Assembly: GCF_001652275.1 (NCBI RefSeq)
Contig: NZ_LVZK01000003.1
Location: 383,672 to 447,671 of the forward strand
Reading direction: 5' to 3'
DNA from: Peptidiphaga gingivicola
GTDB taxonomy: Bacteria > Actinomycetota > Actinomycetes > Actinomycetales > Actinomycetaceae
DNA: 64,000 bases
Part shown: one piece after another, positions 22 through 32,166 of the stretch
How positions within the stretch are numbered: the stretch's first letter is position 1
Layout of the letters: the number at the start of each line of letters is the position of its first letter
Notes under the pieces: model-generated
Databases searched by the model: none
Seen by the model: the letters and a program-made list of their open reading frames with translations, nothing else
Told to the model about the DNA's origin: nothing
Position numbers and translations under genes: made by a program

Positions 22-1002
22 ATGAGCGGTCCCCACGTTTTCAATGGAAAAGGAAGCGATTGCGCCGATATTCTCAACCCGTCACGGCGTACACGCAAGC
101 CACCACGACGGAGGCGTCGGTTCTCTACGAAGACGGCAGGAGATATGCGAGGAGCACGCAAGGAAGGGAAAGCCATGGAGAGGAACCGCTCTCAACCGGG
201 CCGGTCTGCCCGCCGCGCCCGCTTCGGAAGGGAGGCCAAGGAGGAGACGGACACCATGGCCACGGACACCGCGATCAAGGGCGCCTGGGCCGGGGCCAGC
301 GCGAGCACCGCATGGGCAAAGAGCAAAAGGGGCGAGGGAACGCGAACTGGGGTGAGAGCGGCGGCAAGGGCAGGGGCGGGAGTCGGCGCTCCGAGCCGGG
401 ACTGGGTTCCGCTGATCGACGCCGCCACGACGCGCGTGGTCCCTCTCGGCTTCATCTTTTACCTCTTGGCAACCACTCTCTACCTGTTCTATTGGGGGCA
501 GCCGCTCGGCGCGACGGAGATGTGGGCTCGGACGCTTTTGTGGAACGTGTGGCCCTGGCTGGGGCTCATGTGTCTGGCGTTGACGTGGGCGTGGGCAAGC
601 CGCAAGGATCCGCGGCAGACGTGGCTGCGCCGTCTGATGAACCGCGCTCCCTTGTTCGGGAAAAAGGCGGCGATCCTGGGCGCTGCCCTCGGCTTAATGT
701 TCTTGTTGCAGGCGGCCGCCAACGACGTCGAACTGGCGCTGGATCTGCAGGCGGGCCCGCGAGGCGAGACCGGCGTGGTGTGCACGGAGTTCAAGGAGTG
801 GCCCTCGTATAAGAACGGAGACGCCAAGACCACGTTCGTCCTGCGCCACGCGAACGGGCGGGACGAAACTTTCGAGTTCATATCTCGCCTGGGCGTGTGG
901 GACGACGGCCCTCGCGGGTCGATCAAACGGCTGTGTTCCTCGCAAGAGTCCTTCACCCTTTGGCGGTGGGCAAGAACCGGAGTCATCGCCGACGTCGAAT
1001 GA
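22..1002 (+). CDS. Hypothetical membrane protein. The C-terminal two thirds contains several hydrophobic helices; the N-terminal Arg-rich part is probably not translated.
   Basis: Long ORF. Internal Met codons at 175 and 256 precede the hydrophobic segments (LGFIFYLLATTLYLFYW, LGLMCLALTWAWA). No recognisable family. Confidence 0.4.
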   Translation: MSGPHVFNGKGSDCADILNPSRRTRKPPRRRRRFSTKTAGDMRGARKEGKAMERNRSQPGRSARRARFGREAKEETDTMATDTAIKGAWAGASASTAWAKSKRGEGTRTGVRAAARAGAGVGAPSRDWVPLIDAATTRVVPLGFIFYLLATTLYLFYWGQPLGATEMWARTLLWNVWPWLGLMCLALTWAWASRKDPRQTWLRRLMNRAPLFGKKAAILGAALGLMFLLQAAANDVELALDLQAGPRGETGVVCTEFKEWPSYKNGDAKTTFVLRHANGRDETFEFISRLGVWDDGPRGSIKRLCSSQESFTLWRWARTGVIADVE

Positions 1003-1039
1003 CGGGGCCAACGACGCTCGCCGGGTGCGCCGTTGCGCA

Positions 1040-1140
1040 TGAACTCGCCGACGCGCACGAAACCAGAAGCGCACACAAACCAGCCGTCGCACGAGTTCAG
1101 AATCGCGGACAAACTTGGAATCGCGGACGAACTCGGAATC
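1040..1140. repeat. Degenerate tandem repeats of about 18 bp (units GAATCGCGGACAAACTTG / GAATCGCGGACGAACTCG / GAATCGCACACGAAAAGC and CGCACGAAACCAG-like units) leading into the 100-bp direct repeat
   Basis: Read directly from the sequence at 1040-1160. Confidence 0.6.
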
Positions 1141-1235
1141 GCACACGAAAAGCACCTTGGCACCATATAAGGACCAGATTTTAGACCTTGCAATGCGCGG
1201 CGGCGTTTTTCATGTGAAAGCGAAGGCCGACGCCG
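1136..1235. repeat. 100-bp direct repeat, copy A. It matches 4349-4448 with 97 of 100 identities and flanks the three-gene island.
   Basis: GAATCGCACACGAAAAGCACCTTGGCACC(A/G)TATAAGGACCA(G/A)ATTTT(A/G)GACCTTGCAATGCGCGGCGGCGTTTTTCATGTGAAAGCGAAGGCCGACGCCG occurs at both sites. It contains an imperfect inverted repeat GCGGCGGCG...CGACGCCG. Confidence 0.9.
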
Positions 1236-1322
1236 AACCTTGCCACCCCGATGCTCTGTCGCAATAAAGCTCCCCTGAAATCTCGAAGGCCAACGTCGGT
1301 ATGGCCCAGATGTCGAGCAGTC

Positions 1323-3044
1323 CTACTTGAAGCGAAAACCGAAGAGCCCACCGTCTTCGCCTGCATCCGTCAACACGGGATCGATGGCGTAATCCCGTCG
1401 ATCAAACCCTTCGGCCTCAGCTGCCTGCAAACGATCCGAGTTGAGCGTGACGATGTACTGGAATCCCACGTCGTCTGCGAGGCGGGCTCCGATATTGAGA
1501 CAGGAGGCGACTTGCCTGTCGTCCATGGAGTCGAAGAGGAGGCTGTCGTGCACAAGGATGCGCGGAGCCCGACCGGCCTTGATGGCCATGACGAGGCAGA
1601 CGACGTCAAGCAGGAAGGTCTTCACTCCGCGAATGCCGGACGAGGCATCGCCATCGATCTCAGGAGTGACTTTGAGTACCCCCTTGTTTGCGTCAATGAG
1701 CAAGGAAACATCGCGATCGTCGTAGATCTCTTCGCCAAGCTGTTGGAACAGGGAGATCGCCTCTTCGATAAATTCTTCCCGTTCGGCCATCTCGGTTCGG
1801 ACGCTGGCCTCCGCTTCAGCCGTGATTGAACGCAGGCGTAGCCCGGCGTCGTTCACCGACTGCACGAGCTCCAGCCTTCGCTCCAGATCCGCGACGGTAG
1901 AATCGACCTCCGCAAGTTCCCTTTCCGCATTGCGAAAAGTCTCGAGTGCCATTGAGTCGTTTAGAAGGTTCATCACATCCGCTCGGCGGCGGTCCAAGGC
2001 CCTACGCTCGGCCTCAATCGCTTTGAGCCTGTCAAGGACGCTGACACGCTCCGATTCAAGGTACAACCGACGATTGCGCACTACGGACGAATGGAAGTCC
2101 GCCACCTCTTCGAATCGTCGCGCTACGACGTCGGGCAGGACGATGCCGATCTCTACATACATCGTCTCTAGCTGCTTGGCCATGTCGGCACTAGAAGCCG
2201 TCGGCCTCTCTTCTTGCATTGCCAATTCGAGGTCGCGTTTGCGTTGCTCCAGCACAAGACCCTCGTCATTGAGATCCCTGATCGCCTGGGTAAGACGGTC
2301 GGCTTCAGCCTGATGTTCGGCATACTGCTCGTCGACGCGGAATCCCGACAGTTTCGATTCGAGGCGCAACCGGCGCTGGCGCAATTTAGCCAGGCGTGCA
2401 CGAAGCTCCGGCTCATTCATCGAAACGTTTCCAAGAGCTCCCTCGGCAATCGCCTTCTTGAGCGCTTTGCGATTCTTCTCAAGGGCGGAAGCCTCACCCG
2501 CCTTGGCGAGAATTTCTGGCGTGAACCCTAAAAGGTATCCGATTCTAGCCCCCGACTCCCATGCCGATTCTGCAGCAAACGTCTTAAGCGGATCGCCAAA
2601 ATAATCCCTGACCAGCTGACTGACAAGCTGACCGACCGTGGGGCGATTCGCATCCGCAGGAAGCCGAAATAGTTGGCCAACGTCAAGCTTCCAAGCGTCG
2701 ATACTTGTCGAGACGCCGTCGACGCGCACTTTCGTTTGAGGTTTGACCGCGCGTTCGATTCGCTTGACATCAGCAACGCCTCTCGTCAGGTCGTCGACGG
2801 CGTTCTCCATCTCAAGATCGCCCCAGAAAGAGAAATGAGCCAGCTCGGCGGATTTGAGACTGTCATCGAGCTTTCCGCCTAGGAGATAGCGAAGGATGCG
2901 GACAAAGCTTGTCTTCCCGGCGCCGTTTCTACTATCACCCAGTTTTGAGCCCTGAGTTTTATCCGCGAGCAGTACATTCATGCCTTCGTGGAAGCGCAGC
3001 GTCTTAAATCGGCAATCGGAGGAACCGAGTTCATACAGAAACAT
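1323..3044 (-). CDS. SMC/ABC-type ATPase with a long central coiled-coil insert. Putative ATPase component of a three-gene defence-like module (Lamassu LmuB-like or ABC-3C ATPase-like).
   Basis: 573 aa. Walker A motif (NGAGKTS) near the N-terminus. Residues about 180-420 are heptad-rich and Arg/Glu/Leu-rich (coiled coil). Walker B/D-loop ILVHDSLLFDSMD near the C-terminus. The start codon overlaps the stop of the upstream 84-aa gene. Confidence 0.8.
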   Translation of the reverse strand: MFLYELGSSDCRFKTLRFHEGMNVLLADKTQGSKLGDSRNGAGKTSFVRILRYLLGGKLDDSLKSAELAHFSFWGDLEMENAVDDLTRGVADVKRIERAVKPQTKVRVDGVSTSIDAWKLDVGQLFRLPADANRPTVGQLVSQLVRDYFGDPLKTFAAESAWESGARIGYLLGFTPEILAKAGEASALEKNRKALKKAIAEGALGNVSMNEPELRARLAKLRQRRLRLESKLSGFRVDEQYAEHQAEADRLTQAIRDLNDEGLVLEQRKRDLELAMQEERPTASSADMAKQLETMYVEIGIVLPDVVARRFEEVADFHSSVVRNRRLYLESERVSVLDRLKAIEAERRALDRRRADVMNLLNDSMALETFRNAERELAEVDSTVADLERRLELVQSVNDAGLRLRSITAEAEASVRTEMAEREEFIEEAISLFQQLGEEIYDDRDVSLLIDANKGVLKVTPEIDGDASSGIRGVKTFLLDVVCLVMAIKAGRAPRILVHDSLLFDSMDDRQVASCLNIGARLADDVGFQYIVTLNSDRLQAAEAEGFDRRDYAIDPVLTDAGEDGGLFGFRFK

Positions 3045-3285
3045 GGTGCCTCACCAACTGATCGGAGGCATTCCATGCGACGGCCCCGATGGCGAATAAC
3101 ATCGACAAAGCCATGGCAAACCAGTCGAAGGTGATGGCGCCTCCGGCATGTCCCGATCTCGTTTCTCGTGAGAATCGTTCCCAAAGCCCCGATACGGTGG
3201 TCGGCGAATCCAGCAGAGACAGAAGCTTCGCCCCCAGCGTCAGCAAAGCACGTTCGGGGCGTATCCCCTTAGTCGGAAGCAACAT
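3031..3285 (-). CDS. Small 84-aa protein, the middle gene of the three-gene module. Start and stop overlap both neighbouring genes.
   Basis: ORF positioned exactly between the two larger genes, with a 17-nt overlap upstream and a 14-nt overlap downstream. Hydrophobic C-terminal half (FDWFAMALSMLFAIGAVAW). Confidence 0.55.
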   Translation of the reverse strand: MLLPTKGIRPERALLTLGAKLLSLLDSPTTVSGLWERFSRETRSGHAGGAITFDWFAMALSMLFAIGAVAWNASDQLVRHHVSV

Positions 3286-4234
3286 CGCCAGTTTCTCCTA
3301 TAGAAAAGTCCGCGGGAGGCTCTTCGAAGATGTCACATGAATCGAAAAAGTATACGGTAACGGCGTAAACTGCGTTGGCGCGTTTCGTCCACATGTCGAA
3401 GTCTGGTCCGCCCAGAGCGACGTATACGCGCCGCACAATCTCACGCACATCGGACGTCACCCGACGTGCTTCCTCATAAATCTGACGAAAACGTCGAGCC
3501 TTCGCATCGCGAAGACCAGGATCGGGCTGCCCGGCGAACCACTTGTCAATACGTAGGGACAGAAGCCTCCCCTCATCAAACTCAGTCCTCGTCGTCCTCG
3601 GGAGCCTGTTGAAGTCCATCTTAGTTGAAGAGACAGGTCTGATGTCTTCGAGAAGGTGATCAACATCGCCACCCTCGACCCCTTCAAGCATTTCAATGAG
3701 CTCAACCAAATCGTCAAGCTCCACATTCTGCGCGTGCGGGGAACCCGGTATGATTTCATCCAGCTGATCCCAAGCTAGTTTACTCACGGCCTCCCACCAC
3801 AGATCGTCCGGAGCTTTCCAAAGCTCGAGAGCTATCGGACGTTTGGAGTCTGGACCGTGCTTCTTCCGCAACTTAAGCAGACTGTCAGTTGAGGCAGGGC
3901 CAAAAGACGCATTCGTCACAAACCGCCACACCCTGAACTCCGGCCAAAAGGCGTAAGCTCTAGCGAAGTCATCTTCCAGCTTCTTTTTGGTCTTCTGGTC
4001 GAGATTTGTTACTGCACGTTGTCCGTAGCAGGCGTAAAGGATGGACCCGTTTTCGGCGATTCCGTCACAGCCGCCGTCCCCGAGGCTGCCCATGGCCTCT
4101 GGATTGACGTAGTCTTTGTGCAGATGGGAGAGCACCTTGCTCACGTAGTTCTCAAACTCTTCGCCGGCGGCAAGGCACAGCTGATCGTGTCGCGCTCGAA
4201 ACCAGAACTTCCAAGCCGAATCGGGCAATGCCAT
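3269..4234 (-). CDS. Protein with an N-terminal Mrr-like restriction-endonuclease-fold motif. Putative effector of the three-gene module.
   Basis: 321 aa. GDGGCDGIAENGSILYACYGQ resembles the Mrr catalytic-core signature GDGGIDG...(V/I)QxK, but no Lys follows the Gln. First gene of the operon, with lower GC than the flanking DNA. Confidence 0.7.
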   Translation of the reverse strand: MALPDSAWKFWFRARHDQLCLAAGEEFENYVSKVLSHLHKDYVNPEAMGSLGDGGCDGIAENGSILYACYGQRAVTNLDQKTKKKLEDDFARAYAFWPEFRVWRFVTNASFGPASTDSLLKLRKKHGPDSKRPIALELWKAPDDLWWEAVSKLAWDQLDEIIPGSPHAQNVELDDLVELIEMLEGVEGGDVDHLLEDIRPVSSTKMDFNRLPRTTRTEFDEGRLLSLRIDKWFAGQPDPGLRDAKARRFRQIYEEARRVTSDVREIVRRVYVALGGPDFDMWTKRANAVYAVTVYFFDSCDIFEEPPADFSIGETGDVASD

Positions 4235-4348
4235 GACTCTCCTCCCTTCGATGACAGGTGTTCGACGCTCGAAGAATGACGCATCTGCGCCGAATCTGTT
4301 ACTGTTAAAATTTTACCCTACCAGGAGGCTTTCGAAGTAGTCGGCGTT

Positions 4349-4448
4349 GAATCGCACACGAAAAGCACCTTGGCACCGTATAAGGACCAAATTTTGGACC
4401 TTGCAATGCGCGGCGGCGTTTTTCATGTGAAAGCGAAGGCCGACGCCG
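4349..4448. repeat. 100-bp direct repeat, copy B (partner of 1136-1235)
   Basis: 97 of 100 identical to copy A. Lies 115 bp upstream of the operon start and about 195 bp from the tRNA-His 3' end. Confidence 0.9.
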
Positions 4449-4642
4449 CGCTTCACCAAGCAGCGACAAAGGACGCCGTCGCGTTTCGCTATGCAGCAAC
4501 GAAAGTCAATGCCAAGCTTTGCCATGCAAAATAGGGGTAGGAGCCGAGCCACAACGGAAGACCGGGCGATTATGCAATCGAGAATCTCGCATTCAGCCAG
4601 AAATCTCAGCCCAACTGACTTGGGGGGAATGCCCGACCGACG

Positions 4643-4719
4643 TGGGGTGGATGACGGGGCTCGAACCCGCGACCCCCTGGACCACAACCAGGTGCTCTAC
4701 CGACTGAGCTACAACCACC
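4643..4719 (-). tRNA. tRNA-His (anticodon GTG) with encoded G-1 and 3' CCA
   Basis: Reverse complement folds as a cloverleaf. GTGGTTG acceptor with G-1:C73, D-arm GCTCAGTCGGTAGAGC, anticodon loop TTGTGGT, T-arm GCGGGTTCGAGCCCCGT, CCA encoded. One U-U mismatch in the acceptor stem. Confidence 0.85.
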
Positions 4720-4861
4720 GTACGTGCCCCAGGCAGGGTCGCTCGCCTGGGGCACTGTTCAAGTGTAGCCTAGCTTCTGCGTCGTGACGAAACGCCCCCG
4801 GGTGATCCGCACCACCGCAGCGCAACAAACTGTCCGACGACGGCGCCGCGCTTCACGTCGC

Positions 4862-4925
4862 TCGAGAGCCGCTCCACCTCGCACGAGAGCCGCTCCACCT
4901 CGCACGAGAGCCGCTTCTTCGCGTC
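4862..4925. repeat. Tandem repeat, about 21 bp x3 (CGCACGAGAGCCGCTCCACCT)
   Basis: Visible in the sequence between tRNA-His and the ATP-grasp gene. Confidence 0.6.
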
Positions 4926-4954
4926 TCACGAGGGCGATGCGCTGGCATGCACCG

Positions 4955-5878
4955 TCACCAATGCACGCGCATGGCTATGGCGTCGGCGAACTTCTTCAGA
5001 TGCGTGGGGTTCTGCGAAAGGTAGAGCGATCCGTCGATGAGGGAGACCTCGAGGACGTAGAACTCGTGGGCGTCTTTGGGGCCGCCGCGGACGATGTCGA
5101 CGCGGTTGTACAGGAGCAGCTCGTCGCGGCCACACGTATCGACGATGTATCCGTGCACGATCTCGCGAATCTGCTCGCCCCAACGCCACTCCTGGGAGTT
5201 GGTCGCGTCCGAGCGGACCACTTCCTCGTGGAACTCCTCGGTGGAGCGGAAGCTGGGGTGCAGCATCGGATCCTTCTCGACCTGGTACGAAGCTAGTCCG
5301 TTGAGGTAGATGAGCGAGGTCTCCCCCGATCGGTCGATCTGGTCGAGGTAGCGCTGCACCATGACGGGGCGGCCGTTTTCGAGCTCGCTCATCGCATGGC
5401 GTATGGCCTCGCCGCGGGAGTTCGGGTCGATCGCCGTATACCTCCCGGTCCCGCGCCCGCCCGAGGAAATGGCCGGCTTGACCACGAAATCCCCGTACGC
5501 GGGGAACCGAGTGTGCAGCTGATGCTTCGTCAGATTCTGCTCGGGCTCGAGCCACACCGTCGGAATGACCGGCAGACCGCGGGCCTCCAGCTCGCGCAGG
5601 TAGTGCTTGTCCGAATTCCAGTCCATGACCTGCGCCTGGTTGAGGATCCGCGGAATAGAACGCGCCCAGGCGCGGAACTCCTCGCGCTGGGCCGCATAAT
5701 CGCGCACGGAGCGGACGACCACGGTTCCCGCCTGCGACCAGTCGACGTCGGGGTCGTTCCACACGGAGATCCTCGGTTCGAGCCCGCGCTCCCGCAGGGC
5801 GTCGGGAAGGCCCTGCTCGTCGGCGTCAAGGTCTGGCAATTCGGCGCACGTTGCCAAGGTCACGATCGGATCAGACAC
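4955..5878 (-). CDS. ATP-grasp fold protein (RimK/glutathione-synthetase-like)
   Basis: 307 aa. Central Gly-rich motif (VVKPAISSGGRGTGRYTAI) in an ATP-grasp-like layout. High-GC codon usage. Confidence 0.65.
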   Translation of the reverse strand: MSDPIVTLATCAELPDLDADEQGLPDALRERGLEPRISVWNDPDVDWSQAGTVVVRSVRDYAAQREEFRAWARSIPRILNQAQVMDWNSDKHYLRELEARGLPVIPTVWLEPEQNLTKHQLHTRFPAYGDFVVKPAISSGGRGTGRYTAIDPNSRGEAIRHAMSELENGRPVMVQRYLDQIDRSGETSLIYLNGLASYQVEKDPMLHPSFRSTEEFHEEVVRSDATNSQEWRWGEQIREIVHGYIVDTCGRDELLLYNRVDIVRGGPKDAHEFYVLEVSLIDGSLYLSQNPTHLKKFADAIAMRVHW

Positions 5879-6127
5879 GCAGCCAACTTTACCCGATGGC
5901 GATTGCGCGGATCACGCCCAAGCTCAAGTCAATCAAATGCGAACTCGGGCGAAACCCGTACGAATTCGGCCCAATCGCATACACGGCATCCGAAACGCGT
6001 GCCCAAGCGGCCCCGAGGGCTGCGACGCCTCGGGGCCGGGCCGCATCGCGGGCCGCACTTCGTCGCATCCGACGTCGTCCCGGAAAACGAAAAGCCCCGC
6101 AGCCTTGCGGCCGCGGAGCCCTGTTCG

Positions 6128-6200
<73 letters not shown>

Positions 6201-6355
6201 TTGCAAAGCTAGATTACTCAGGCGCCCGCCGCCGCGCAAGCCGGCCTCGTGTGATCTAGCTCCACCGCGCCGCCCTGAGGCGGCCTTGGCCGCAGACGAA
6301 GAGTCCGTGACGCCGTTGACTCAATATGCCCGTCCGCCCGGCTGCCTGAATGCCT

Positions 6356-6442
6356 CTCGCCCAGACCCGCACGGCACCCCTCGCCACTCTTGCTGGGGCT
6401 GACGTTCCGTCGTCCTCTCGCCCAGACCCGCACGGCACCCCT
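6356..6442. repeat. Two 27-bp direct repeats (CTCGCCCAGACCCGCACGGCACCCCTC) spaced 60 bp apart, upstream of a TetR gene
   Basis: Exact duplicates at 6356-6382 and 6416-6442. Confidence 0.8.
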
Positions 6443-6482
6443 CCTCACCTCCTTTCTCAGTTCGCCTTCTGTACCAACCACT

Positions 6483-7064
6483 ATGTACAATCTTGGCATG
6501 GACACACGAACCCGGCTGGTGAACGTCGCGCAAGACCTCCTGTGGGAGCGCGGGTACGCAGCGACCAGCTCCAAAGAAATCCTCAACCGCGCCAACGTGG
6601 GCCAGGGAAGCATGTACCACCACTTCTCGGGCAAGCGAGACCTGGCTGCCGCGGCCTTGGAACAGAGCGCCGCGGCGATGCGCGCCGAGGCAGAGGCCCT
6701 TCTGGCCGCAGACGGAACGTCCGTCGAGCGCGTGATCTCCTACCTCGAACGGCAGCGAGACTCGCTGCGGGGCTGCCGCATGGGACGTATGACGTACGAC
6801 GCCGACGTGCTGGCAACCCCGGAGCTTCTCCGCCCGGTCGCCGAGACTCTCGGGTGGATCGTAGGCGCTCTCGCCGACGTCGTCCGCCAGGGGATCGAAG
6901 CCAGGGAATTCCGGCACGAGACAGATCCCGAGCAACTCGCCTCGATGGTCGTCGCGACCGTCCAAGGCGGATATGTGCTCGCGCGAGCCCAGCAGAATCC
7001 AGCGGCCTTCGACGCCGCAGTCGCCGGCGCGGCGTCGCTCATACGCCAACAGGCCGGCGGCTGA
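6483..7064 (+). CDS. TetR/AcrR family transcriptional regulator
   Basis: N-terminal helix-turn-helix TRLVNVAQDLLWERGYAATSSKEILNRANVGQGSMYHHF. Start at Met 6483 (or 6498) within ORF 6390..7064. Confidence 0.75.
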   Translation: MYNLGMDTRTRLVNVAQDLLWERGYAATSSKEILNRANVGQGSMYHHFSGKRDLAAAALEQSAAAMRAEAEALLAADGTSVERVISYLERQRDSLRGCRMGRMTYDADVLATPELLRPVAETLGWIVGALADVVRQGIEAREFRHETDPEQLASMVVATVQGGYVLARAQQNPAAFDAAVAGAASLIRQQAGG

Positions 7065-7134
7065 GCCTCGGGCGCCGCCTCGCCGGCGTCGGCTCGCAAT
7101 TGACCGAAACACAAGCAACGAAGGAACAGAACCG

Positions 7135-7692
7135 ATGTATGCAATGCAATACCAGATCGCTTTGCCCGCCGACTACGACATGGACGTCATTCGCAAGAGG
7201 GTCCGAGCGACGGGCCGTCTCATGGACGGGTTTCCCGGACTGGAGTTCAAGGCTTACCTCGTACAAGAAAAGGCCGAGGGCGCGCCGCGGAACGCCTACG
7301 CCCCCTTTTATGTGTGGCGAGACACCGCCGGCATGCGCAGTTTCTGCTGGGGCGAGCCCGGCTACTCGTCGATCGTCCGGGACTTCGGGCGCCATTCCAT
7401 TCAAGACTGGACCGTGCACAAGATCGCTCGCGGCCCGTCTTCCTACGCGAGCGCACGCAGCCTGTCCTTTCAGACCGTTTCGCTTCCGGACGACGTCGCC
7501 CCCTCCGCCTGCGTCGAAAACCTCTCGGCCCCATTCCTCTCGGAAGAGGACGGCGAGACCGTCGCACGAGTCGCCGCCGTCGACGTGACCGCATGGAACC
7601 TCGTCTTGGTCGAGCTGAGCGCCGCACACGCCGAACAGAGCGCCGCAGGCCGGACCGTCTACGAAGTCCTTCACGTCTCGGAAGGCTCGTGA
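7135..7692 (+). CDS. Hypothetical 185-aa protein
   Basis: ATG at 7135 preceded by an AAGGA ribosome-binding site 9 nt upstream. Followed by a perfect hairpin terminator. Confidence 0.7.
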   Translation: MYAMQYQIALPADYDMDVIRKRVRATGRLMDGFPGLEFKAYLVQEKAEGAPRNAYAPFYVWRDTAGMRSFCWGEPGYSSIVRDFGRHSIQDWTVHKIARGPSSYASARSLSFQTVSLPDDVAPSACVENLSAPFLSEEDGETVARVAAVDVTAWNLVLVELSAAHAEQSAAGRTVYEVLHVSEGS

Positions 7693-7723
7693 CCGAACAA
7701 GGTCCGAAGAAAATCGAAAGGCC

Positions 7724-7750
7724 CGCAGTCTTTCGACTGCGGGCCTGACC
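7724..7750. terminator. Bidirectional hairpin terminator GGCCCGCAGTC-TTTC-GACTGCGGGCC
   Basis: Perfect 11-bp stem, between convergent gene 7135..7692 (+) and tRNA-Lys (-). Confidence 0.7.
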
Positions 7751-7752
7751 CG

Positions 7753-7824
7753 TACACCGCCTGGGACTCGAACCCAGAACCCACTGATTAAGAGTCAGTT
7801 GCTCTACCATTGAGCTAGCGGTGC
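7753..7824 (-). tRNA. tRNA-Lys (anticodon CTT), copy 2
   Basis: Same cloverleaf as copy 1, with differences in the acceptor stem (GCACCGC) and D-loop (AATGGTA). Confidence 0.85.
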
Positions 7825-7872
7825 GGATTCCAACTTTACCCGCCGATCGCGGCGCAGGCAAACGCCGATCCC

Positions 7873-10842
7873 GTGGCGCGCGACACCGTCGCCGCACTCG
7901 CCCTTCCGACGCCGGCGCCGCAGGAGCCGCGGGAAACCGACGTCGCCGTTCCGATGCCGTCCTTGTGGCAATCTTGTGGGGTGACGAACGAAAAGCCCGA
8001 CGCCCCAGCCCTCAACCTTGCGCTTGACAGGCTCGAAGACGCCTTCGGATTCACGCCCGACGGCGACGCCGTCTACGAGGAGTTCTCGAACTGGGCCGAA
8101 TCGACGGGACGCCCCCTCTACCCCCACCAGGAAGAGGCTCTTCTGGCTGCCGTTTCAGGCGACAACCTGATCGTTTCCACGCCGACGGGATCGGGCAAGT
8201 CGATGGTCGCGCTCGCGGCGATCTTCACCGCCCTCGCACACGGGCGGAGCGCCTACTACACGGCACCGCTCAAAGCCCTCGTCTCGGAAAAGTTCTTCGA
8301 GCTCATCGCGGCCTTCGGCGCGCACAACGTGGGCATGGTCACGGGTGACTCGTCCATCAACGCCGGGGCGCCGATCGTGTGCGCAACGGCGGAAATCGTC
8401 GCGAACATCGCGTTGCGCGAGGGCGACGCCGCGGACATCGGCGTGCTCATCGCCGACGAGTTCCACTTCTACGGCGATCCCCAGCGCGGGTGGGCATGGC
8501 AGGTCCCCCTCCTGGAGCTCGCCTCGACCCAGCACGTCCTCCTCTCCGCCACTCTCGGCGACACGTCCTTCCTCGCGGAAGACCTGAGCAAACGCACCGG
8601 CAGGAACACATCCGTCGTCGACCGCGCCGAGCGCCCCGTCCCCCTCGCGTTCTCCTACTCGCGCGAGCCCCTCGGCGAAGTCGTCCTCGAACTCGTCCAC
8701 ACCCACCGCGCCCCCGTCTACGTGGTCCACTTCTCACAAAAGGAGGCCGTCAGCCAAGCGCAGGCCCTGCTTCCGATCAACCTGACGACGAAGGCCGAGC
8801 GCGAGCTCATAGCCAAGGAGATCGGCGATTTCCGCTTCGGCCCCGGCTTCGGAAAAACGCTGTCCAAACTGTTGCGATCGGGCATCGGCGTCCACCACGC
8901 GGGGCTGCTCCCCCGCTACCGCCGGCTCGTCGAAAGGCTCACGCAAGCCGGACGGCTCAAGGTCGTCTGCGGCACGGACACCCTCGGCGTCGGGATCAAC
9001 GTCCCCATTCGAACCGTGCTCCTGACGTCGCTGTCGAAGTTCGACGGAACCCGTTCACGCCACCTTTCGGCCCGCGAGTTCCACCAGATCGCGGGCCGGG
9101 CGGGCAGGGCCGGGTTCGACACGGCGGGCGACGTCGTCGTCCAAGCCCCCGAGTACGAGATCGAAAACGCGAAAGCCCTGGAAAAAGCCGCCGGGGACCC
9201 CAAGAAGCTCAAGAAACTCGTTCGAAAGAAAGCCCCCGAAGGCGTGGTGCTGTGGGGAGAGAAGACGCTCGCGCACCTGCAGAACGCGGCGCCGGAGAAG
9301 CTGGCCTCGCAGATGCGCGTCAACCACGCCATGATCCTCAACCTTCTGCAACGCCCCGGGGATTCGGTGGCCGCCGCCGTCCGTCTGCTGACGGACAACC
9401 ACGAGCCCAAAACCGAGTCGAACCCCCTGCTCAGAAGGGCGGTCGAAATCTACGAAACGCTCCGTTCGGCGGGGGTCCTCGTCCACCACGACGTCCAATG
9501 GCAGGCCGCCCACCCCGGCGAGTCCGCGGTCGATTTCGCTCGCGAGGTTCCGAGCGACTTCGCCCTCAACTCGCCTCTGGCTCCCTTCGCGCTTGCGGCC
9601 CTCGACCTGCTCGAACGCGAGTCCCCCGACTATCCGCTCGACGTCGTCTCGGTGGTAGAGGCCGTCCAAGAGAATCCGATGCAGGTGCTCTATGCGCAGG
9701 AGCGCGCAGCGCGCGGCGAGGCGATCGGGCGGATGAAGGCCGCCGGAATGGGCTACGAGGAGCGGATGGCCGAGGCGGACTCCATCACGTGGCCGCGGCC
9801 CCTCGCGGAGCTTTTGGAGGGGGCGTTGGCCGTCTACCGTCAGACGAATCCATGGGTGGACGGCTACGACCTCACGCCGAAATCGATCGTGCGGGAAATG
9901 GTGGAGCACGCCGAGACGTTCTCCGAGTTCGTCTCACGCTACGACCTGGCGCGCAGCGAGGGCGTGCTTTTGCGCTATCTCTCGGACGTCTACAAGGCCC
10001 TGCGGCAGACCGTGCCGCTCGAGGCCCGCACGGACGAGGTCGACGAGATCACGCAGTGGCTGGGGACTCTCGTGCGCTCGGTCGACTCCTCGCTCCTCGA
10101 CGAATGGGAGGCCCTAGCAGACGGCAGGGTGACGCCTGAGGAGGCCGCGCGCATGTCCGGCGAGGCCGAAGGCGGGCTCGACGAGGTCGCCTTCGGGGCG
10201 GACGAGAACGGCGCCGCTGCCTTTACCCGCAACCGCCACGCCTTCAAAGCCGCGGTCCGCAACGCAGCGTTTCGCAGGGTCGAGGCCGTTCAATTCGAGG
10301 ACCTCGAATCCTTGGACCGCCTCGACGGCGAGCCCGCGTGGACGGAATCCAGCCGGTTCGGGGACGCCGGCAGCCAAGTCGGGGACGAGAGCGGCGAGGC
10401 CGAGGCTGTGGGCGGCGCGGCCGGGGCCACACGCAGCGAAGCACAAGACGCACGCAGCGAAGCAGGGGACGAAGGAAGCCGGGCGACGCTCGCAAACCGC
10501 GAAGCGGGGCCCGTATGGGACGGCGACGCCTGGATGGACGCCACCGATCCGTACTTCGACGTCTACGAGAGCGTCGGCATCGACTCCCACGCCCGCGGAA
10601 ACGAGTTCTTCCGAGTACAAGAACAGGCCGATGCCGCAGACCTCGCCGAGACGGGCGTGCCCCGCGAGGTCGCCGAAGCCCTCGTCGAGGGAAAGCAACC
10701 CGGCCGCCTGTGGATCGTCACGCAGGTTTTCGACGACGGCGAAGGCGACGGCGGCTGGGGCTTCCGCGCATTCGTCGACCTCGACGAATGCGACGAGCTG
10801 GGTGCGGCGAAGCTTCGGGTCGTCCACGTCGGCGAGCTGTGA
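7873..10842 (+). CDS. DEAD/DEAH-box superfamily-2 helicase with a long C-terminal extension (Lhr / DUF3516-type)
   Basis: Motif I TPTGSGKS, DEAD-like ADEFH, motif VI QIAGRAGRAG. The start codon is uncertain (candidates 7873 or 7951). Confidence 0.8.
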   Translation: MARDTVAALALPTPAPQEPRETDVAVPMPSLWQSCGVTNEKPDAPALNLALDRLEDAFGFTPDGDAVYEEFSNWAESTGRPLYPHQEEALLAAVSGDNLIVSTPTGSGKSMVALAAIFTALAHGRSAYYTAPLKALVSEKFFELIAAFGAHNVGMVTGDSSINAGAPIVCATAEIVANIALREGDAADIGVLIADEFHFYGDPQRGWAWQVPLLELASTQHVLLSATLGDTSFLAEDLSKRTGRNTSVVDRAERPVPLAFSYSREPLGEVVLELVHTHRAPVYVVHFSQKEAVSQAQALLPINLTTKAERELIAKEIGDFRFGPGFGKTLSKLLRSGIGVHHAGLLPRYRRLVERLTQAGRLKVVCGTDTLGVGINVPIRTVLLTSLSKFDGTRSRHLSAREFHQIAGRAGRAGFDTAGDVVVQAPEYEIENAKALEKAAGDPKKLKKLVRKKAPEGVVLWGEKTLAHLQNAAPEKLASQMRVNHAMILNLLQRPGDSVAAAVRLLTDNHEPKTESNPLLRRAVEIYETLRSAGVLVHHDVQWQAAHPGESAVDFAREVPSDFALNSPLAPFALAALDLLERESPDYPLDVVSVVEAVQENPMQVLYAQERAARGEAIGRMKAAGMGYEERMAEADSITWPRPLAELLEGALAVYRQTNPWVDGYDLTPKSIVREMVEHAETFSEFVSRYDLARSEGVLLRYLSDVYKALRQTVPLEARTDEVDEITQWLGTLVRSVDSSLLDEWEALADGRVTPEEAARMSGEAEGGLDEVAFGADENGAAAFTRNRHAFKAAVRNAAFRRVEAVQFEDLESLDRLDGEPAWTESSRFGDAGSQVGDESGEAEAVGGAAGATRSEAQDARSEAGDEGSRATLANREAGPVWDGDAWMDATDPYFDVYESVGIDSHARGNEFFRVQEQADAADLAETGVPREVAEALVEGKQPGRLWIVTQVFDDGEGDGGWGFRAFVDLDECDELGAAKLRVVHVGEL

Positions 10843-18655: not shown

Positions 18656-19603
18656 TTACTCTTCGTCGTCCAAAGACTCCAAGGCAAGCGCGTGGTTCAT
18701 GCCGCCCGCGATGACCTTGCGCTGGTAGTCCCACAGAGAGACGACGTTCACCTGGAGGTCTTCCTCCTCGTCGACCTCGAAAAGCTTGTGGATGTCGCGC
18801 ACCGACCGCTCGATGACCTTCAGTTCGAATATTCGGTCGCGGACCCGGCGTCGGGTTGTCGCGGCAATGTCGCTCATGTCTTCGGCGACGACGTCGAAGG
18901 CGATCGGTATCGTCACGTCCGCCTTGTAGAGATCGGCGACGTCGTAGACGAAGGAACGCTCGTGACCTGTGTGAACGAATCCCAGCCCCGGCGAGCATCC
19001 CAGTGAAACGACGACGGCGTGGATCACCCCGTATAGTGCGGCGTGCGCGGCAGACAGCGCCTGATTGATCGGATCTGAGGCGTCGAAATCGTCGTACTCG
19101 TACTCGCGGCGCTTCCACGGCACCCCTGTACGCTTCGAGTTCTCACGGTAGACGGAACGAATGCGGGCGCCTTCCCGTCCCCGCAGCTGTTGCATTGTCA
19201 ATCCGTCAACGTCTTCGCCTGCAAAACGCATCGTGTACATTTTCCTCGCAACCGCCAGCCGCTTTTGCGGAGAGGAGACACGAGCCGCTTGCTCCACGAG
19301 CAGCCTGCTCGACGTCGCCAGGGACCTGCCGTGAGCGTAGTAGCGAACCCCGCGCTCGCCGACCCACACTGCGGTGGTGCCGCACTCGCCCAAAAGGCAC
19401 ATCGCCTGGTGGCTCACCGAGGTCCCCGGGCCCAGCAGCACCGCCAAAAGCGACGCAGCCGGAACGCGAACCAAGCCCTTGTCGTCGCGCGCCGTCACAG
19501 CGCCGTCCTCACGATGGACGACGCAATGCTCCAAGTAGAGAAAGGACATCCGGTCGGCTGCGCGAGGAAGCGCCGTGACGGGAACGGGAAGCAGGCGCGC
19601 CAT
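18656..19603 (-). CDS. cas1: CRISPR-associated endonuclease Cas1 (type I-E)
   Basis: 315 aa, conserved Cas1 I-E core, immediately upstream of cas2. Confidence 0.85.
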   Translation of the reverse strand: MARLLPVPVTALPRAADRMSFLYLEHCVVHREDGAVTARDDKGLVRVPAASLLAVLLGPGTSVSHQAMCLLGECGTTAVWVGERGVRYYAHGRSLATSSRLLVEQAARVSSPQKRLAVARKMYTMRFAGEDVDGLTMQQLRGREGARIRSVYRENSKRTGVPWKRREYEYDDFDASDPINQALSAAHAALYGVIHAVVVSLGCSPGLGFVHTGHERSFVYDVADLYKADVTIPIAFDVVAEDMSDIAATTRRRVRDRIFELKVIERSVRDIHKLFEVDEEEDLQVNVVSLWDYQRKVIAGGMNHALALESLDDEE

Positions 19604-28167: not shown

Positions 28168-31100
28168 GTCTTCCCCGCGCATGCGGGGGTGATCCCCTGT
28201 GCAAAACGCGTCTTGGAGATTTCTCGGTTGTCTTCCCCGCGCATGCGGGGGTGATCCGAAAAATCGACCCACCTTCACCTTCGAAATGTAGTCTTCCCCG
28301 CGCATGCGGGGGTGATCCGGATTGCTCCTTGGGGCGTTTCACGTTGATGCGGTCTTCCCCGCGCATGCGGGGGTGATCCCGGTTCGATGACATACGTGAC
28401 CGAAACCTCAACGTCTTCCCCGCGCATGCGGGGGTGATCCCGACAACAAATTCGCGGCTCCTTGAATGTAGACGTCTTCCCCGCGCATGCGGGGGTGATC
28501 CTGCGAAGCGCTCGCTCGCTCATCAGCTGATGGAGTCTTCCCCGCGCATGCGGGGGTGATCCCGTCCCGTCGGCGTCCTCCACGCACGCATCGCCGTCTT
28601 CCCCGCGCATGCGGGGGTGATCCGACGAAATGAGCTTGGACGAGAAGACTCCCGCCGTCTTCCCCGCGCATGCGGGGGTGATCCGCAGCAAAGAAAGGAA
28701 AACAACAATGAAATACCGTCTTCCCCGCGCATGCGGGGGTGATCCATGTGCAGGCTGCGGCCAGCACGTCACACTCACGTCTTCCCCGCGCATGCGGGGG
28801 TGATCCGCGATCGAAGGGCTTCTCAATGGATGAAATCATGTCTTCCCCGCGCATGCGGGGGTGATCCCTCGGCCCTCCGCGCACGTCAAGAAGGCGCTGA
28901 GTCTTCCCCGCGCATGCGGGGGTGATCCGTACGCTAACTGGTTGATTGGCGAGATCCGCGCGTCTTCCCCGCGCATGCGGGGGTGATCCCGCGACTTCCC
29001 CGGCCCCTTTATGCTCGATTGCGTCTTCCCCGCGCATGCGGGGGTGATCCTTTAATGGGGTAGATGATGAAACTTCCAAACGCGTCTTCCCCGCGCATGC
29101 GGGGGTGATCCGGGATCGCCGCCGTAGAGGGATACCCACAGGGAGTCTTCCCCGCGCATGCGGGGGTGATCCCAAAGCGAAATCGACGTTCGTCATATAG
29201 AGGGTGTCTTCCCCGCGCATGCGGGGGTGATCCCCGTGCGTCGCCGACGTGTTGACGTCCGTTCCGGTCTTCCCCGCGCATGCGGGGGTGATCCTTTCGG
29301 GAGTCTCGTGAGCGATCTCCCGGAGCAGTCTTCCCCGCGCATGCGGGGGTGATCCGTCGGCATTTTGCATGGACGTTTTGTACGAGTTGTCTTCCCCGCG
29401 CATGCGGGGGTGATCCGTATCTCTCGCCGTCCGGCAGGATCGCCACAGCGTCTTCCCCGCGCATGCGGGGGTGATCCCGAGCCCGTTCTCGGCAAATACA
29501 GGAACCGGATCGTCTTCCCCGCGCATGCGGGGGTGATCCCCCGGGAGGGGATCATGACCAGCTCAAACTGCGGTCTTCCCCGCGCATGCGGGGGTGATCC
29601 GTACATGGCAGAGTCGAAAAACATCTCGTGCTTGTCTTCCCCGCGCATGCGGGGGTGATCCGTCTGGGATGAGGGCAATGTCCATCGACAGCGTGTCTTC
29701 CCCGCGCATGCGGGGGTGATCCCTTATTGTAGTACGGCATGATTTCGTTCATCTTGTCTTCCCCGCGCATGCGGGGGTGATCCTGCAAGATTGCAGACAA
29801 GTGGTTGACGATGGGGGTCTTCCCCGCGCATGCGGGGGTGATCCCATCCTCCTTACGCGTCCACGAACGTCGAGCTCGTCTTCCCCGCGCATGCGGGGGT
29901 GATCCGGGGTATGCACGGTATCTTCCCAACGAATTCGAGTCTTCCCCGCGCATGCGGGGGTGATCCCTGCACGCGTCGGCCGGTGAATTCTTTGAGTTTG
30001 TCTTCCCCGCGCATGCGGGGGTGATCCTCAAACGAACGGTGGACATCCGCCCGGGGGAGCGTCTTCCCCGCGCATGCGGGGGTGATCCTCTTCCTTCGCG
30101 CCGAACGCCAGCGTATTCGCCGTCTTCCCCGCGCATGCGGGGGTGATCCCGCGCTGAATTTGCGCCATCCCATGATCGTCGCGTCTTCCCCGCGCATGCG
30201 GGGGTGATCCTGCAGGAGACGACGGGGCCGTTTTCGAACACGTGTCTTCCCCGCGCATGCGGGGGTGATCCCCTCAGCTTGAGGCCTTGTATCGAAACGC
30301 TAAGGTCTTCCCCGCGCATGCGGGGGTGATCCGCTCCCAAGGAAGCCACCGATTGGCAGCAGCGAAGTCTTCCCCGCGCATGCGGGGGTGATCCGTCGGC
30401 GCGGATCCACAGGGGCTCGCCGTCGTCGTCTTCCCCGCGCATGCGGGGGTGATCCGAGACCCGTAGCGTGGACGTGAGCGGCGACGAGGTCTTCCCCGCG
30501 CATGCGGGGGTGATCCGGTGCATGACCGTCTGCGTGGCGGCCGCGCCGTGTCTTCCCCGCGCATGCGGGGGTGATCCTCGTCTGCTGGTGCGGATGCGCA
30601 ACGGCAAGAACGTCTTCCCCGCGCATGCGGGGGTGATCCTATCCCATCGTCTGCCACTTGCCGTTCTCGGAAAGTCTTCCCCGCGCATGCGGGGGTGATC
30701 CGTACACGAACGACCGCAGACGGAAAAACCCTGAGTCTTCCCCGCGCATGCGGGGGTGATCCCTTCCACAAATGAGAATACCGCTTGTCATATTTGGTCT
30801 TCCCCGCGCATGCGGGGGTGATCCCACAGCCGGAACCCAGCCGCCACGACCGTCGGAGTCTTCCCCGCGCATGCGGGGGTGATCCCAACACCTCAACCTC
30901 ATGCCAATCCGGCAACGGGTCTTCCCCGCGCATGCGGGGGTGATCCTGGCAGGCTGTTGCCGGCGTGCTTCTCACGGTTGTCTTCCCCGCGCATGCGGGG
31001 GTGATCCCTCGGCGACCGACAGGAGAGACGCATATGAGCGGTCTTCCCCGCGCATGCGGGGGTGATCCTAACGACTTGACGTATAGACTTCACAGTGTTA

Positions 31101-32166
31101 GGTCTTCCCCGCGCATGCGGGGGTGATCCCACGGGCACGCCAGCCGGCGGGTTGAAATCCCCGTCTTCCCCGCGCATGCGGGGGTGATCCCTCTCTCGTC
31201 ACACTCCAACGGTCGGGCTCTGTGTCTTCCCCGCGCATGCGGGGGTGATCCGGCCACACGCATTCAAAAACGTCATAAAGGAAAGTCTTCCCCGCGCATG
31301 CGGGGGTGATCCCGTCGAAGACCCGATCGTCGCCTTGTAGTCGGCGTCTTCCCCGCGCATGCGGGGGTGATCCCCAGATGCAGCGCCGCGCGGATTTGGC
31401 GACGGAGTCTTCCCCGCGCATGCGGGGGTGATCCCACTTCCTACGTGTTCGTCAACACAACGTTCGTGTCTTCCCCGCGCATGCGGGGGTGATCCGGCGA
31501 TCTGATGGGCGTTCGACGCCATGTAGTTGTCTTCCCCGCGCATGCGGGGGTGATCCCCGGTCAACAATGCCATGCGAAGGGCTGTCGAGGTCTTCCCCGC
31601 GCATGCGGGGGTGATCCGCTGTGGCGTCCGCGTTTTTGCCGTGTTCTCGTGTCTTCCCCGCGCATGCGGGGGTGATCCCAAGCCGTGACCGGGTGATCCT
31701 GGGCGCGGATCGTCTTCCCCGCGCATGCGGGGGTGATCCGTTTGGCGACGTCGGAGGAGGTCAAGCGTCCTCGTCTTCCCCGCGCATGCGGGGGTGATCC
31801 TTGGCGGCCTTGAGCGCAATGTTTTCGGCATCTGTCTTCCCCGCGCATGCGGGGGTGATCCCTGAGCCTCCGACCATTCGCGCCCTTGTTTAAGGTCTTC
31901 CCCGCGCATGCGGGGGTGATCCTTCCTATCAGACATGATATTGGTGAACATTGTGGTCTTCCCCGCGCATGCGGGGGTGATCCGAGGCTTATAGTCCAGG
32001 TGCGGCTTCACCTGAAGTCTTCCCCGCGCATGCGGGGGTGATCCGCCTTGCCATGGGGTTCCGCGCGTGGGGATGACGTCTTCCCCGCGCATGCGGGGGT
32101 GATCCGATATTCACCGCACGCGGCCCAAACCACTGCATGTCTTCCCCGCGCATGCGGGGGTGATCC
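28168..32166 (+). CRISPR. Type I-E CRISPR array: 66 identical 28-bp repeats GTCTTCCCCGCGCATGCGGGGGTGATCC with 65 spacers of 33-34 bp
   Basis: Every repeat was read and is identical. The period is 61-62 bp. A weak degenerate extra repeat (CCATTCTGCGCACATTACAATCC) about 33 nt past the last repeat, at about 32200-32227, is consistent with a trailer at this end. Confidence 0.97.

Follow-up and report, generated by a model that had tools for sequence, protein, structure and literature searches.

ABC three-component (ABC-3C) systems have been placed within the Lamassu superfamily of defense systems by reviews and structural papers, and the type II Lamassu systems (LmuA-LmuC-LmuB, DdmABC) are also called ABC-3C; the ABC-3C classification itself is that of Krishnan et al. 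(2020), taken here as rendered in citing papers and in the Pfam descriptions. In the validated Lamassu systems, defense requires the active site of the ATPase, the active site of the effector and the lmuC gene. Lamassu-Mrr, which contains an Mrr-type LmuA, was validated in Escherichia coli by Millman et al. The short form of the ATPase LmuB has been described as a protein of about 600 amino acids (aa) with a Walker B motif of the type hhhhD[Q/S/T/E]. The locus compared with these systems in this work lies in a stretch of 64,000 nucleotides (nt) of Peptidiphaga gingivicola (the window; assembly GCF_001652275.1, contig NZ_LVZK01000003.1, positions 383,672 to 447,671 of the forward strand). It comprises three minus-strand genes encoding an effector, a small middle protein and an SMC/Rad50-like ATPase, and it is very probably a complete ABC-3C system of the CTD10/MC6/DUF2326 subtype (PDC-M68 in PADLOC) with a predicted Lamassu-like action, carried on a strain-variable cassette that is bounded by direct repeats.

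Gene content and family assignment

The features of the locus are the following, with positions counted from the first nucleotide of the window:

3269-4234, minus strand: effector gene (LmuA-like, 321 aa; from the list of open reading frames)
about 3785-4234, minus strand: effector N-terminal domain with restriction-endonuclease fold (aa about 1-150)
3323-3712, minus strand: effector C-terminal ABC-3C domain CTD10 (aa 175-304; Pfam)
3031-3285, minus strand: middle component gene (LmuC-like, 84 aa, ABC-3C family MC6; Pfam)
1323-3044, minus strand: SMC/Rad50-like ABC ATPase gene (LmuB-like, YydD/DUF2326 type, 573 aa)
4235-4348, minus strand: upstream non-coding part of the cassette (read from the sequence)
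1236-1322, minus strand: downstream non-coding part, from the ATPase stop codon to the left direct repeat, found in occupied sites only
1136-1235, no strand: left direct repeat (DR-L), 100 nt, 87 nt downstream of the ATPase stop codon
4349-4448, no strand: right direct repeat (DR-R), 100 nt, boundary between the cassette and the flank on the side of tRNA-His
4643-4718, minus strand: tRNA-His (GTG), a neighboring landmark outside the cassette (ARAGORN; Rfam tRNA, 62.5 bits)

The curated Pfam gathering thresholds for ABC-3C families were exceeded by all three proteins. The effector matched CTD10 (PF20275, 'C-terminal domain 10 of the ABC-three component systems') over aa 175-304 with an E value of 6.9e-30 (104.8 bits, cut-off 28.1), the 84-aa protein matched MC6 (PF20293, 'ABC-3C Middle Component 6') over aa 3-79 and model positions 1-75 of 76 with an E value of 1.5e-16 (60.6 bits, cut-off 27.2), and the ATPase matched DUF2326 (PF10088) with an E value of 1.2e-30 (106.5 bits, cut-off 28.7). 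The ATPase was also recognized along aa 3-572 by the PADLOC model PDC-M68B (E 5.5e-107, model positions 2-581 of 581). Two PDC-M68A models gave weak matches to the C-terminal part of the effector (E 1e-5 and 2e-5), and relatives of this effector reached 1e-30. All the characters that define ABC-3C were found, namely an ABC ATPase split by a coiled coil, a protein of an MC family, an effector with a variable N-terminal domain and a C-terminal domain, and a conserved operon, so that a complete ABC-3C system of the CTD10/MC6/DUF2326 subtype is clearly predicted from the family matches. An earlier note on this DNA, made from the sequence alone, had compared the module with Lamassu type II and ABC-3C and proposed searches against Pfam and defense-system models, and these searches agree with its comparison. 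Its suggestion that the module might be a divergent or new variant without a described family is not supported, since all three proteins match ABC-3C families and the identical effector is already named 'ABC-three component system protein [Peptidiphaga gingivicola]' by NCBI. The locus adds a member to a subtype that has been described and defined by computation, and RefSeq already annotates it accordingly.

The three genes occupy the positions given in the earlier note and overlap by 17 nt and 14 nt in the list of open reading frames. These overlaps are longer than the 4-nt ATGA type and are compatible with translational coupling, and the same gene boundaries were obtained in independent gene calls on other contigs and assemblies. 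The coding sequence of the triad amounts to 2.9 kb, and the cassette, made up of the upstream region, the operon and one 100-nt repeat, to 3,213 bp. The guanine-plus-cytosine (GC) content of the module is 0.563, compared with 0.661 in the right flank and 0.625 over the window as a whole, with values of 0.53-0.59 over positions 1000-4600 and 0.63-0.68 outside them, as the lower GC noticed earlier had indicated. Within the upstream region (4235-4348), a Shine-Dalgarno-like sequence, GGGAGGAG, immediately precedes the effector ATG, and the sole AT-rich stretch contains a -10-like TAAAAT (minus strand, 4310-4315, read by eye), presumed to be part of a putative promoter. A strict scan for the sigma-70 consensus promoter found no site in this region, and the counts from a consensus promoter and terminator scan were not above those of shuffled sequence.

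In the ATPase, a Walker A motif (NGAGKT, aa 40-45) and a Walker B/D-loop (ILVHDSLLFDSMD, aa 495-507) were read from the sequence, and the AlphaFold2 model, with a predicted local distance difference test score (pLDDT) of 84, contains about 265 residues of long helices (aa 176-440) that separate the two halves of the head, in agreement with the layout around a central coiled coil that had been noticed earlier. The Walker B motif is deviant (ILVHD-S, aa 495-501), with H499 and D500 invariant and S501 nearly so among 36 homologs. This Walker B form, the length of 573 aa and the absence of a CxxC zinc hook are all shared with the short (type II) LmuB. A Foldseek search with the model retrieved YydD of Bacillus subtilis as the top match (9a6c_A, E 1.3e-22, template modeling score 0.55), followed by LmuB of Salmonella (9hqx_B, E 1.1e-11; 9hqu_A, E 5.3e-11) and then by Smc, condensin and Rad50 structures and the LmuB entries 9nyg_B (E 4.7e-9) and 9ux7_A (E 1.3e-8).

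The closest structure, the integrative model 9a6c, thus comes from the YydB-YydC-YydD system of B. subtilis. Both the ATPase and YydD belong to DUF2326, of which YydD is the prototype, and homologs have been labeled 'YydD (DUF2326 family)' by the Joint Genome Institute (JGI), although the sequence identity between the two proteins is just 17%. YydB is a different effector, of the phosphoesterase type. Compared with the type II Lamassu systems (DdmABC of Vibrio cholerae; 9hqx and 9hqu of Salmonella enterica), the identity between the ATPase and LmuB is only about 16%, the C-terminal domain and middle component families are CTD10 and MC6 here but CTD7 and MC3 in the V. cholerae system, and the effector domain is not Cap4. 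The other CTD10/MC6/DUF2326 systems (PDC-M68) have the same gene order, the same sizes (about 300, 80 and 570-590 aa) and the same overlapping junctions. Homologs resembling the triad are found in Actinomycetota and in plasmid copies of Sphingomonas, Phaeobacter and Streptomyces that are identically annotated in RefSeq. The local traits within the subtype are the actinomycete host, an alanine at effector position 68 in place of the glutamine of an FQCYG motif, and the repeat-flanked cassette, none of them essential.

The Pfam CTD10 model also matches the apex of the ATPase coiled coil (aa 269-395, positions 1859-2240, E 1.7e-16), and this double match, to the effector C-terminus and to the ATPase coiled coil, recurs in all homologs. 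A common origin of the two regions was considered and rejected: BLASTP revealed no similarity between them, and an hhalign comparison of the family alignments gave a probability of 0.15%. Because these comparisons show no relation between its two match regions, the Pfam CTD10 model may be composite.

Several observations weigh against a Lamassu-like defense system. The best PADLOC LmuB match to the ATPase is partial, covering only the coiled coil (aa 213-478) with an E value of 1.2e-6, and a search of the ATPase family profile against PDB sequences found neither LmuB nor any other solved chain. Single ATPase and effector sequences and the family profiles, when compared with solved structures, gave matches at chance level only, and because of this the relation of the locus to Lamassu, like that of the effector to nucleases, is drawn from comparison of fold and architecture. 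The PADLOC PDC entries are a set of 145 candidates obtained by 'guilt by embedding' and not experimentally validated, and a literature search on CTD10 with ABC-3C found no experimental test of the CTD10/MC6/DUF2326 subtype. No phage record carrying homologs was found. Within the window, the cassette stands alone among housekeeping genes, and the CRISPR-Cas genes begin about 14 kb away.

The effector N-terminal domain

A further point of this kind concerns the putative active site of the effector. The structure model (pLDDT 84) gives the N-terminal domain an alpha/beta restriction-endonuclease fold of the PD-(D/E)xK type, with a GDGGCDG motif that includes D57, but the lysine of the canonical (E/Q)xK motif is replaced by tyrosine: the next strand reads YACY70G, where the wider family has the consensus FQCYG. 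The Mrr-like motif that had been reported for this protein is therefore borne out as regards GDGGCDG and the fold, and not as regards the lysine. Neither does the sequence carry a nuclease label, since Pfam Mrr_cat was not matched and no nuclease family was found in the effector at E <= 1. Foldseek gave no significant match for the effector model, and the family profile of the N-terminal domain matched no solved nuclease by sequence. The PADLOC LmuA model matched this domain weakly and partially (about 1e-6), and the LmuA model PDLC03852 reached at best an E value of 3e-9 across 58 relatives. With Lamassu-Mrr, the locus has in common an effector of restriction-endonuclease fold with a GDxxxDG-type motif, an SMC-like ATPase and a small middle protein; it differs in an N-terminal domain that is unrecognized by Mrr_cat, is devoid of the QxK lysine and matches PDLC03852 only weakly.

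The pattern of conservation was analyzed at two depths. In 42 close homologs of the effector, Y67, A68, Y70, G71, E28, D53, D57, K85, D89 and R92 are invariant and C69 is nearly so. An exhaustive search with the N-terminal domain only yielded 252 cluster representatives, and among 58 diverse ones G52, D53, D57 and K85 are invariant, with Y70, D89 and N108 nearly so. The conservation of D53, D57 and K85, and almost that of D89, persists down to about 23% identity. The invariant K85 is located in the helix that follows the YACYG strand. In this set of 58, the N-terminal domain is mostly joined to CTD10 (34 of 58) and sometimes to CTD11, and occasional fusions to STAND/NACHT-TPR proteins, to N6 DNA methyltransferases and to a MADS component were found, a set of partners that, judged from these architectures, is the one expected for a putative nuclease module of conflict systems.

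These data bear on whether the effector is a nuclease at all. It could instead be a DNA-binding or sensor module, or have another chemistry, the toxic output being other than DNA degradation. Such a role would fit the presence of tyrosine (occasionally phenylalanine or histidine) at the lysine position in the 58 representatives, the variation between glutamate and glutamine at position 28, where the usual acid of helix 1 is expected, and the alanine at position 68 in this subfamily, and also the missing Mrr_cat match and the family profiles that have no sequence link to solved nucleases. This alternative is nevertheless considered unlikely. The deep conservation of D53, D57, K85 and D89 is compatible with an active site that has a relocated lysine. 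The domain, moreover, invariably takes the place of the effector, and its fusions to methyltransferases and STAND NTPases are like those of nucleases. Because the canonical catalytic lysine is missing, the nuclease activity is something that we infer, and the effector is predicted to be an active PD-(D/E)xK variant whose lysine would be supplied by the following helix. A lysine relocated to the following helix is a known variant of other PD-(D/E)xK enzymes.

Distribution, direct repeats and empty sites

The order effector, middle component and ATPase, with overlapping junctions, was found in 19 of 19 complete genome loci of Actinomycetota, with ATPase identities of 42-78%, so that the co-occurrence of the three genes, the absence of which the earlier note had named as a refutation, extends to every complete related locus. 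These loci come from Actinomycetaceae, Propionibacteriaceae, Corynebacterium, Micrococcus, Microbacterium, Bifidobacteriaceae, Mobiluncus and Coriobacteriia, and in all related loci, plasmid copies included, the MC6 gene sits between the effector and the ATPase genes. The tRNA neighbors of the triad vary between genomes and its gene neighbors differ in every genome; they include SoFic (3 loci), ApeA-HEPN, a type I restriction subunit, a C5 methyltransferase and DRT, together with TrwC relaxases and Mutator transposases, and there are housekeeping genes among them. The GC content of the module is below that of both flanks in 16 of 16 related loci. Homologs were also detected on 46 plasmids of Streptomyces, Phaeobacter, Sphingomonas, Agrobacterium and others (ATPase identity 33-35%), with effectors that align with the cassette effector along their full length and carry the same motifs. 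Among the alphaproteobacterial plasmids, an AbiEi/AbiEii toxin-antitoxin pair precedes the triad in a conjugative plasmid of Sphingomonas, and in a Phaeobacter plasmid a recombinase is found on one side of the triad and, on the other, a type ISP restriction-modification enzyme that adjoins an IS3 element. This conserved synteny across genomes and plasmids with defense neighbors indicates that the triad is an old, mobile and defense-associated unit.

Two of the related loci displayed particular features. In one that is additional to the 19, from a metagenome-assembled genome of Propionibacteriaceae (L011, 1975-2320), the effector is degraded to two short fragments and the MC6 and ATPase genes are intact; this locus may be a decaying system or may be akin to the effector-less Lamassu clade of the literature. 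In Mobiluncus mulieris (L018, 8213-8464), five tandem 42-nt units are located immediately upstream of the homologous triad.

The direct repeats that bracket the module (1136-1235 and 4349-4448) are 97% identical over 100 nt, as originally noticed, and are present in two copies in the 64-kb window, where none would be expected by chance. Assemblies of the same species that are about 98% identical show the same arrangement with both repeats, whose boundaries are sharp and identical in all contigs of the species. A scan of oral metagenomes with a pattern derived from the repeat retrieved 10 contigs, all corresponding to this locus, of which 6 were occupied and 3 were empty. In the empty contigs (L030, L032 and L036), the left flank is joined to the right flank through exactly one repeat and the cassette, including 1236-1322, is absent. 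The flank haplotypes of these contigs differ, each resembling another occupied contig. The cassette is thus present in some P. gingivicola strains and absent in others, and the empty site in sister strains that the earlier note had asked for was found in these three metagenome contigs. The strain-variable presence, together with the lower GC of the related loci, supports the horizontal acquisition that had been put forward.

All three empty contigs come from short-read assemblies, two of them at low coverage (L036, 1.4x; L032, 5.2x), and L034, a contig that stems from data of this type, can be shown to be chimeric, so that the empty sites might be assembly artefacts arising from collapse of the 100-nt repeat, the cassette being fixed in the species. 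The probability of this is low, because the three contigs were obtained independently, from different samples and in different projects, L032 is 25 kb long, the flank haplotypes of the empty contigs are their own and not those of one occupied strain, and skipping 3.2 kb would require the support of read pairs. In L034 itself (ERZ773054 NODE-2401), positions 1-1832 link the 5' end of the effector gene through the repeat to the 3' end of the ATPase gene. The ATPase gene is then broken off midway, and from 1833 to 9629 the contig consists of DNA of 48-57% GC with a Bmp/ABC nucleoside-transporter operon. An interpretation of L034 as an excised circle or a tandem junction was rejected: at a coverage of 2.5x the assembly is chimeric, and its junction is for that reason untrustworthy.

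The empty sites also bear on the possibility that the ATPase is a housekeeping SMC-like repair protein (RecN, SbcC or RecF) encoded in a core-genome operon, which was the refutation envisaged in the earlier note. The head domains do resemble those of Rad50, SbcC and Smc, and weak Pfam matches to AAA_23 and SMC_N were obtained. Against this, the genes are variably present among conspecific strains, have different neighbors in each genome, are low in GC and occur on plasmids, they are constantly linked to MC6 and a CTD10 effector, and the best structural matches are YydD and then LmuB, not RecN. A housekeeping function is hardly credible at all, since the empty sites and the changing genomic surroundings in effect refute it.

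The triad genes are intact in 8 other strains, with ratios of nonsynonymous to synonymous polymorphism (pN/pS) of about 0.2-0.5 from few differences. The interior of the cassette (1323-4234) is less diverged than the flanks in comparison with contigs L025-L037 (0.2-0.5% for the ATPase and about 1.3-3% for whole loci), which may be due to constraint on the coding sequence or to the cassette having spread more recently by recombination. The 11 alleles of the repeat form mosaics of left-copy and right-copy variants, and of variants from different strains, which points to gene conversion and to repeated loss or gain. A search for recombinases found none in the cassette, in the called genes of about 10 kb to the left or in ten large open reading frames rightward to about 20.7 kb. 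As no recombinase is encoded nearby, loss of the cassette most likely proceeds by recombination between or at the two repeats, and gain possibly by the reverse event.

The minus strand of each repeat, the one on which tRNA-His and the operon are encoded, is predicted to fold into an imperfect hairpin of about 85 nt (DR-L, free energy -37.7 kcal/mol, z -3.7; DR-R, -38.8 kcal/mol, z -3.5; 0 of 200 shuffles), and the plus strand folds worse. The base of the hairpin nearly coincides with the ends of the repeat. Across the 11 alleles, 97% of the cells are paired and one compensatory series runs from A-U through G-U to G-C, but shuffles did equally well (93/500) with so sparse a set of alleles; as covariation was indistinguishable from shuffles, the case for the hairpin is entirely that of the thermodynamic z-score. 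The hairpin could be a terminator downstream of tRNA-His and of the operon. Rfam identified no RNA family in or near the repeat other than tRNA.

Other identities have been considered for the repeats. The tRNA-His association that had been noticed is correct as to distance, the tRNA 3' end lying 194 nt from the right repeat, but the repeats are not tRNA-derived, with no similarity to the tRNA, and neither the cassette, which holds just the three genes, nor the flanking genes scanned include an integrase gene, so that a tRNA-targeting integrative island was rejected. A dispersed repeat of the repetitive extragenic palindromic (REP) or miniature inverted-repeat transposable element (MITE) type was rejected as well, with 10 of 10 metagenome matches at this locus and two copies in the window, and so was an integron cassette with attC sites, with no R''/R' boxes read in the repeat, two copies in 64 kb and no integrase found in the cassette or the flanking genes scanned. 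The same or comparable flanking repeats were not found in 16 loci of other species, and for this reason the repeat is regarded as species-specific.

A more far-reaching reading would combine a self-contained, recombinase-free cassette that moves at a fixed site by means of its structured repeat with an effector of non-canonical catalysis (tyrosine for lysine). This combination is decidedly improbable. The route could be a circular intermediate that re-integrates in Campbell style, or a recombinase acting in trans that recognizes the hairpin. If true, it would represent an attC-like route for shuffling defense genes in Actinomycetaceae, a family from which integrons are not known to have been reported.

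Other features of the window were also recorded. A CRISPR-Cas system of type I-E-like character includes Cas1 (18656-19603, minus strand) and a Cse3/Cas6e-type protein (PF08798; 19608-20669, minus strand), and a CRISPR array with a period of 61 nt and the repeat GTCTTCCCCGCGCATGCGGGGGTGATCC extends over 29084-31617. Two tRNA-Lys genes (CTT; 6127-6200 and 7752-7824) are located 1,625 nt from one another and share 98% identity over 59 nt. Between them are a TetR-family gene (6390-7064) and a DUF4865 gene (6973-7692), which makes this a second small segment with flanking direct repeats near the cassette. Tandem units of about 18 nt (GAATCGCGGACnAACTyG) at 1090-1150 run into the left direct repeat, and three 21-nt units are located upstream of tRNA-His (4849-4915), with a copy number that varies between strains, as revealed by a 21-nt indel in some contigs.

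Predicted mode of action and biological meaning

By homology with solved Lamassu complexes, studied by cryo-electron microscopy and by genetics of other subtypes, the following mode of action may be proposed. Two copies of the ATPase would form a coiled-coil dimer that, together with one MC6 protein, would hold one effector through CTD10 in an inactive state. The ATPase would sense, in an ATP-dependent manner, abnormal DNA that arises when phages or plasmids replicate, for example DNA ends or replication intermediates, and the effector would be released. The freed effector would oligomerize, and its N-terminal domain of restriction-endonuclease fold would degrade DNA, with the result that the infection would be aborted or the plasmid eliminated.

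The target of this action could differ from phage. The module could act mainly against plasmids or other incoming DNA, in the manner of DdmABC of V. cholerae, or could be an addiction-like module that stabilizes the cassette. According to the literature, both plasmids and phages are targets of the type II Lamassu DdmABC, whose trigger is DNA that is palindromic or arises as a replication intermediate. The homologs on 46 plasmids and the lack of a phage record are in line with an anti-plasmid role, and P. gingivicola is an oral bacterium for which the phage records in the collection that was searched yielded no match. An anti-phage role is still compatible with these facts, because the same machinery does both in Vibrio, and the plasmid-borne triads adjoin classical anti-phage genes (AbiE, type ISP restriction-modification). 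A module that is mainly anti-plasmid or addiction-like, and not anti-phage, is accordingly regarded as a real possibility, though not the probable one.

The proper label for the locus is ABC-3C / Lamassu-family, MC6-CTD10-DUF2326 subtype (PADLOC PDC-M68), and not a new system. This subtype is compact, is widespread in Actinomycetota and on plasmids from several phyla, and has a non-canonical effector site, so that it would be a sensible choice for finding out to what extent the sequester-and-release mechanism of Lamassu applies. On a small scale, the cassette, bounded by repeats and free of a recombinase, illustrates how defense genes may be gained and lost by recombination at a structured intergenic repeat, and the P. 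gingivicola strains with the cassette and those with the empty site, which are nearly isogenic here, offer a natural comparison of the cost and benefit of defense in the oral microbiome.

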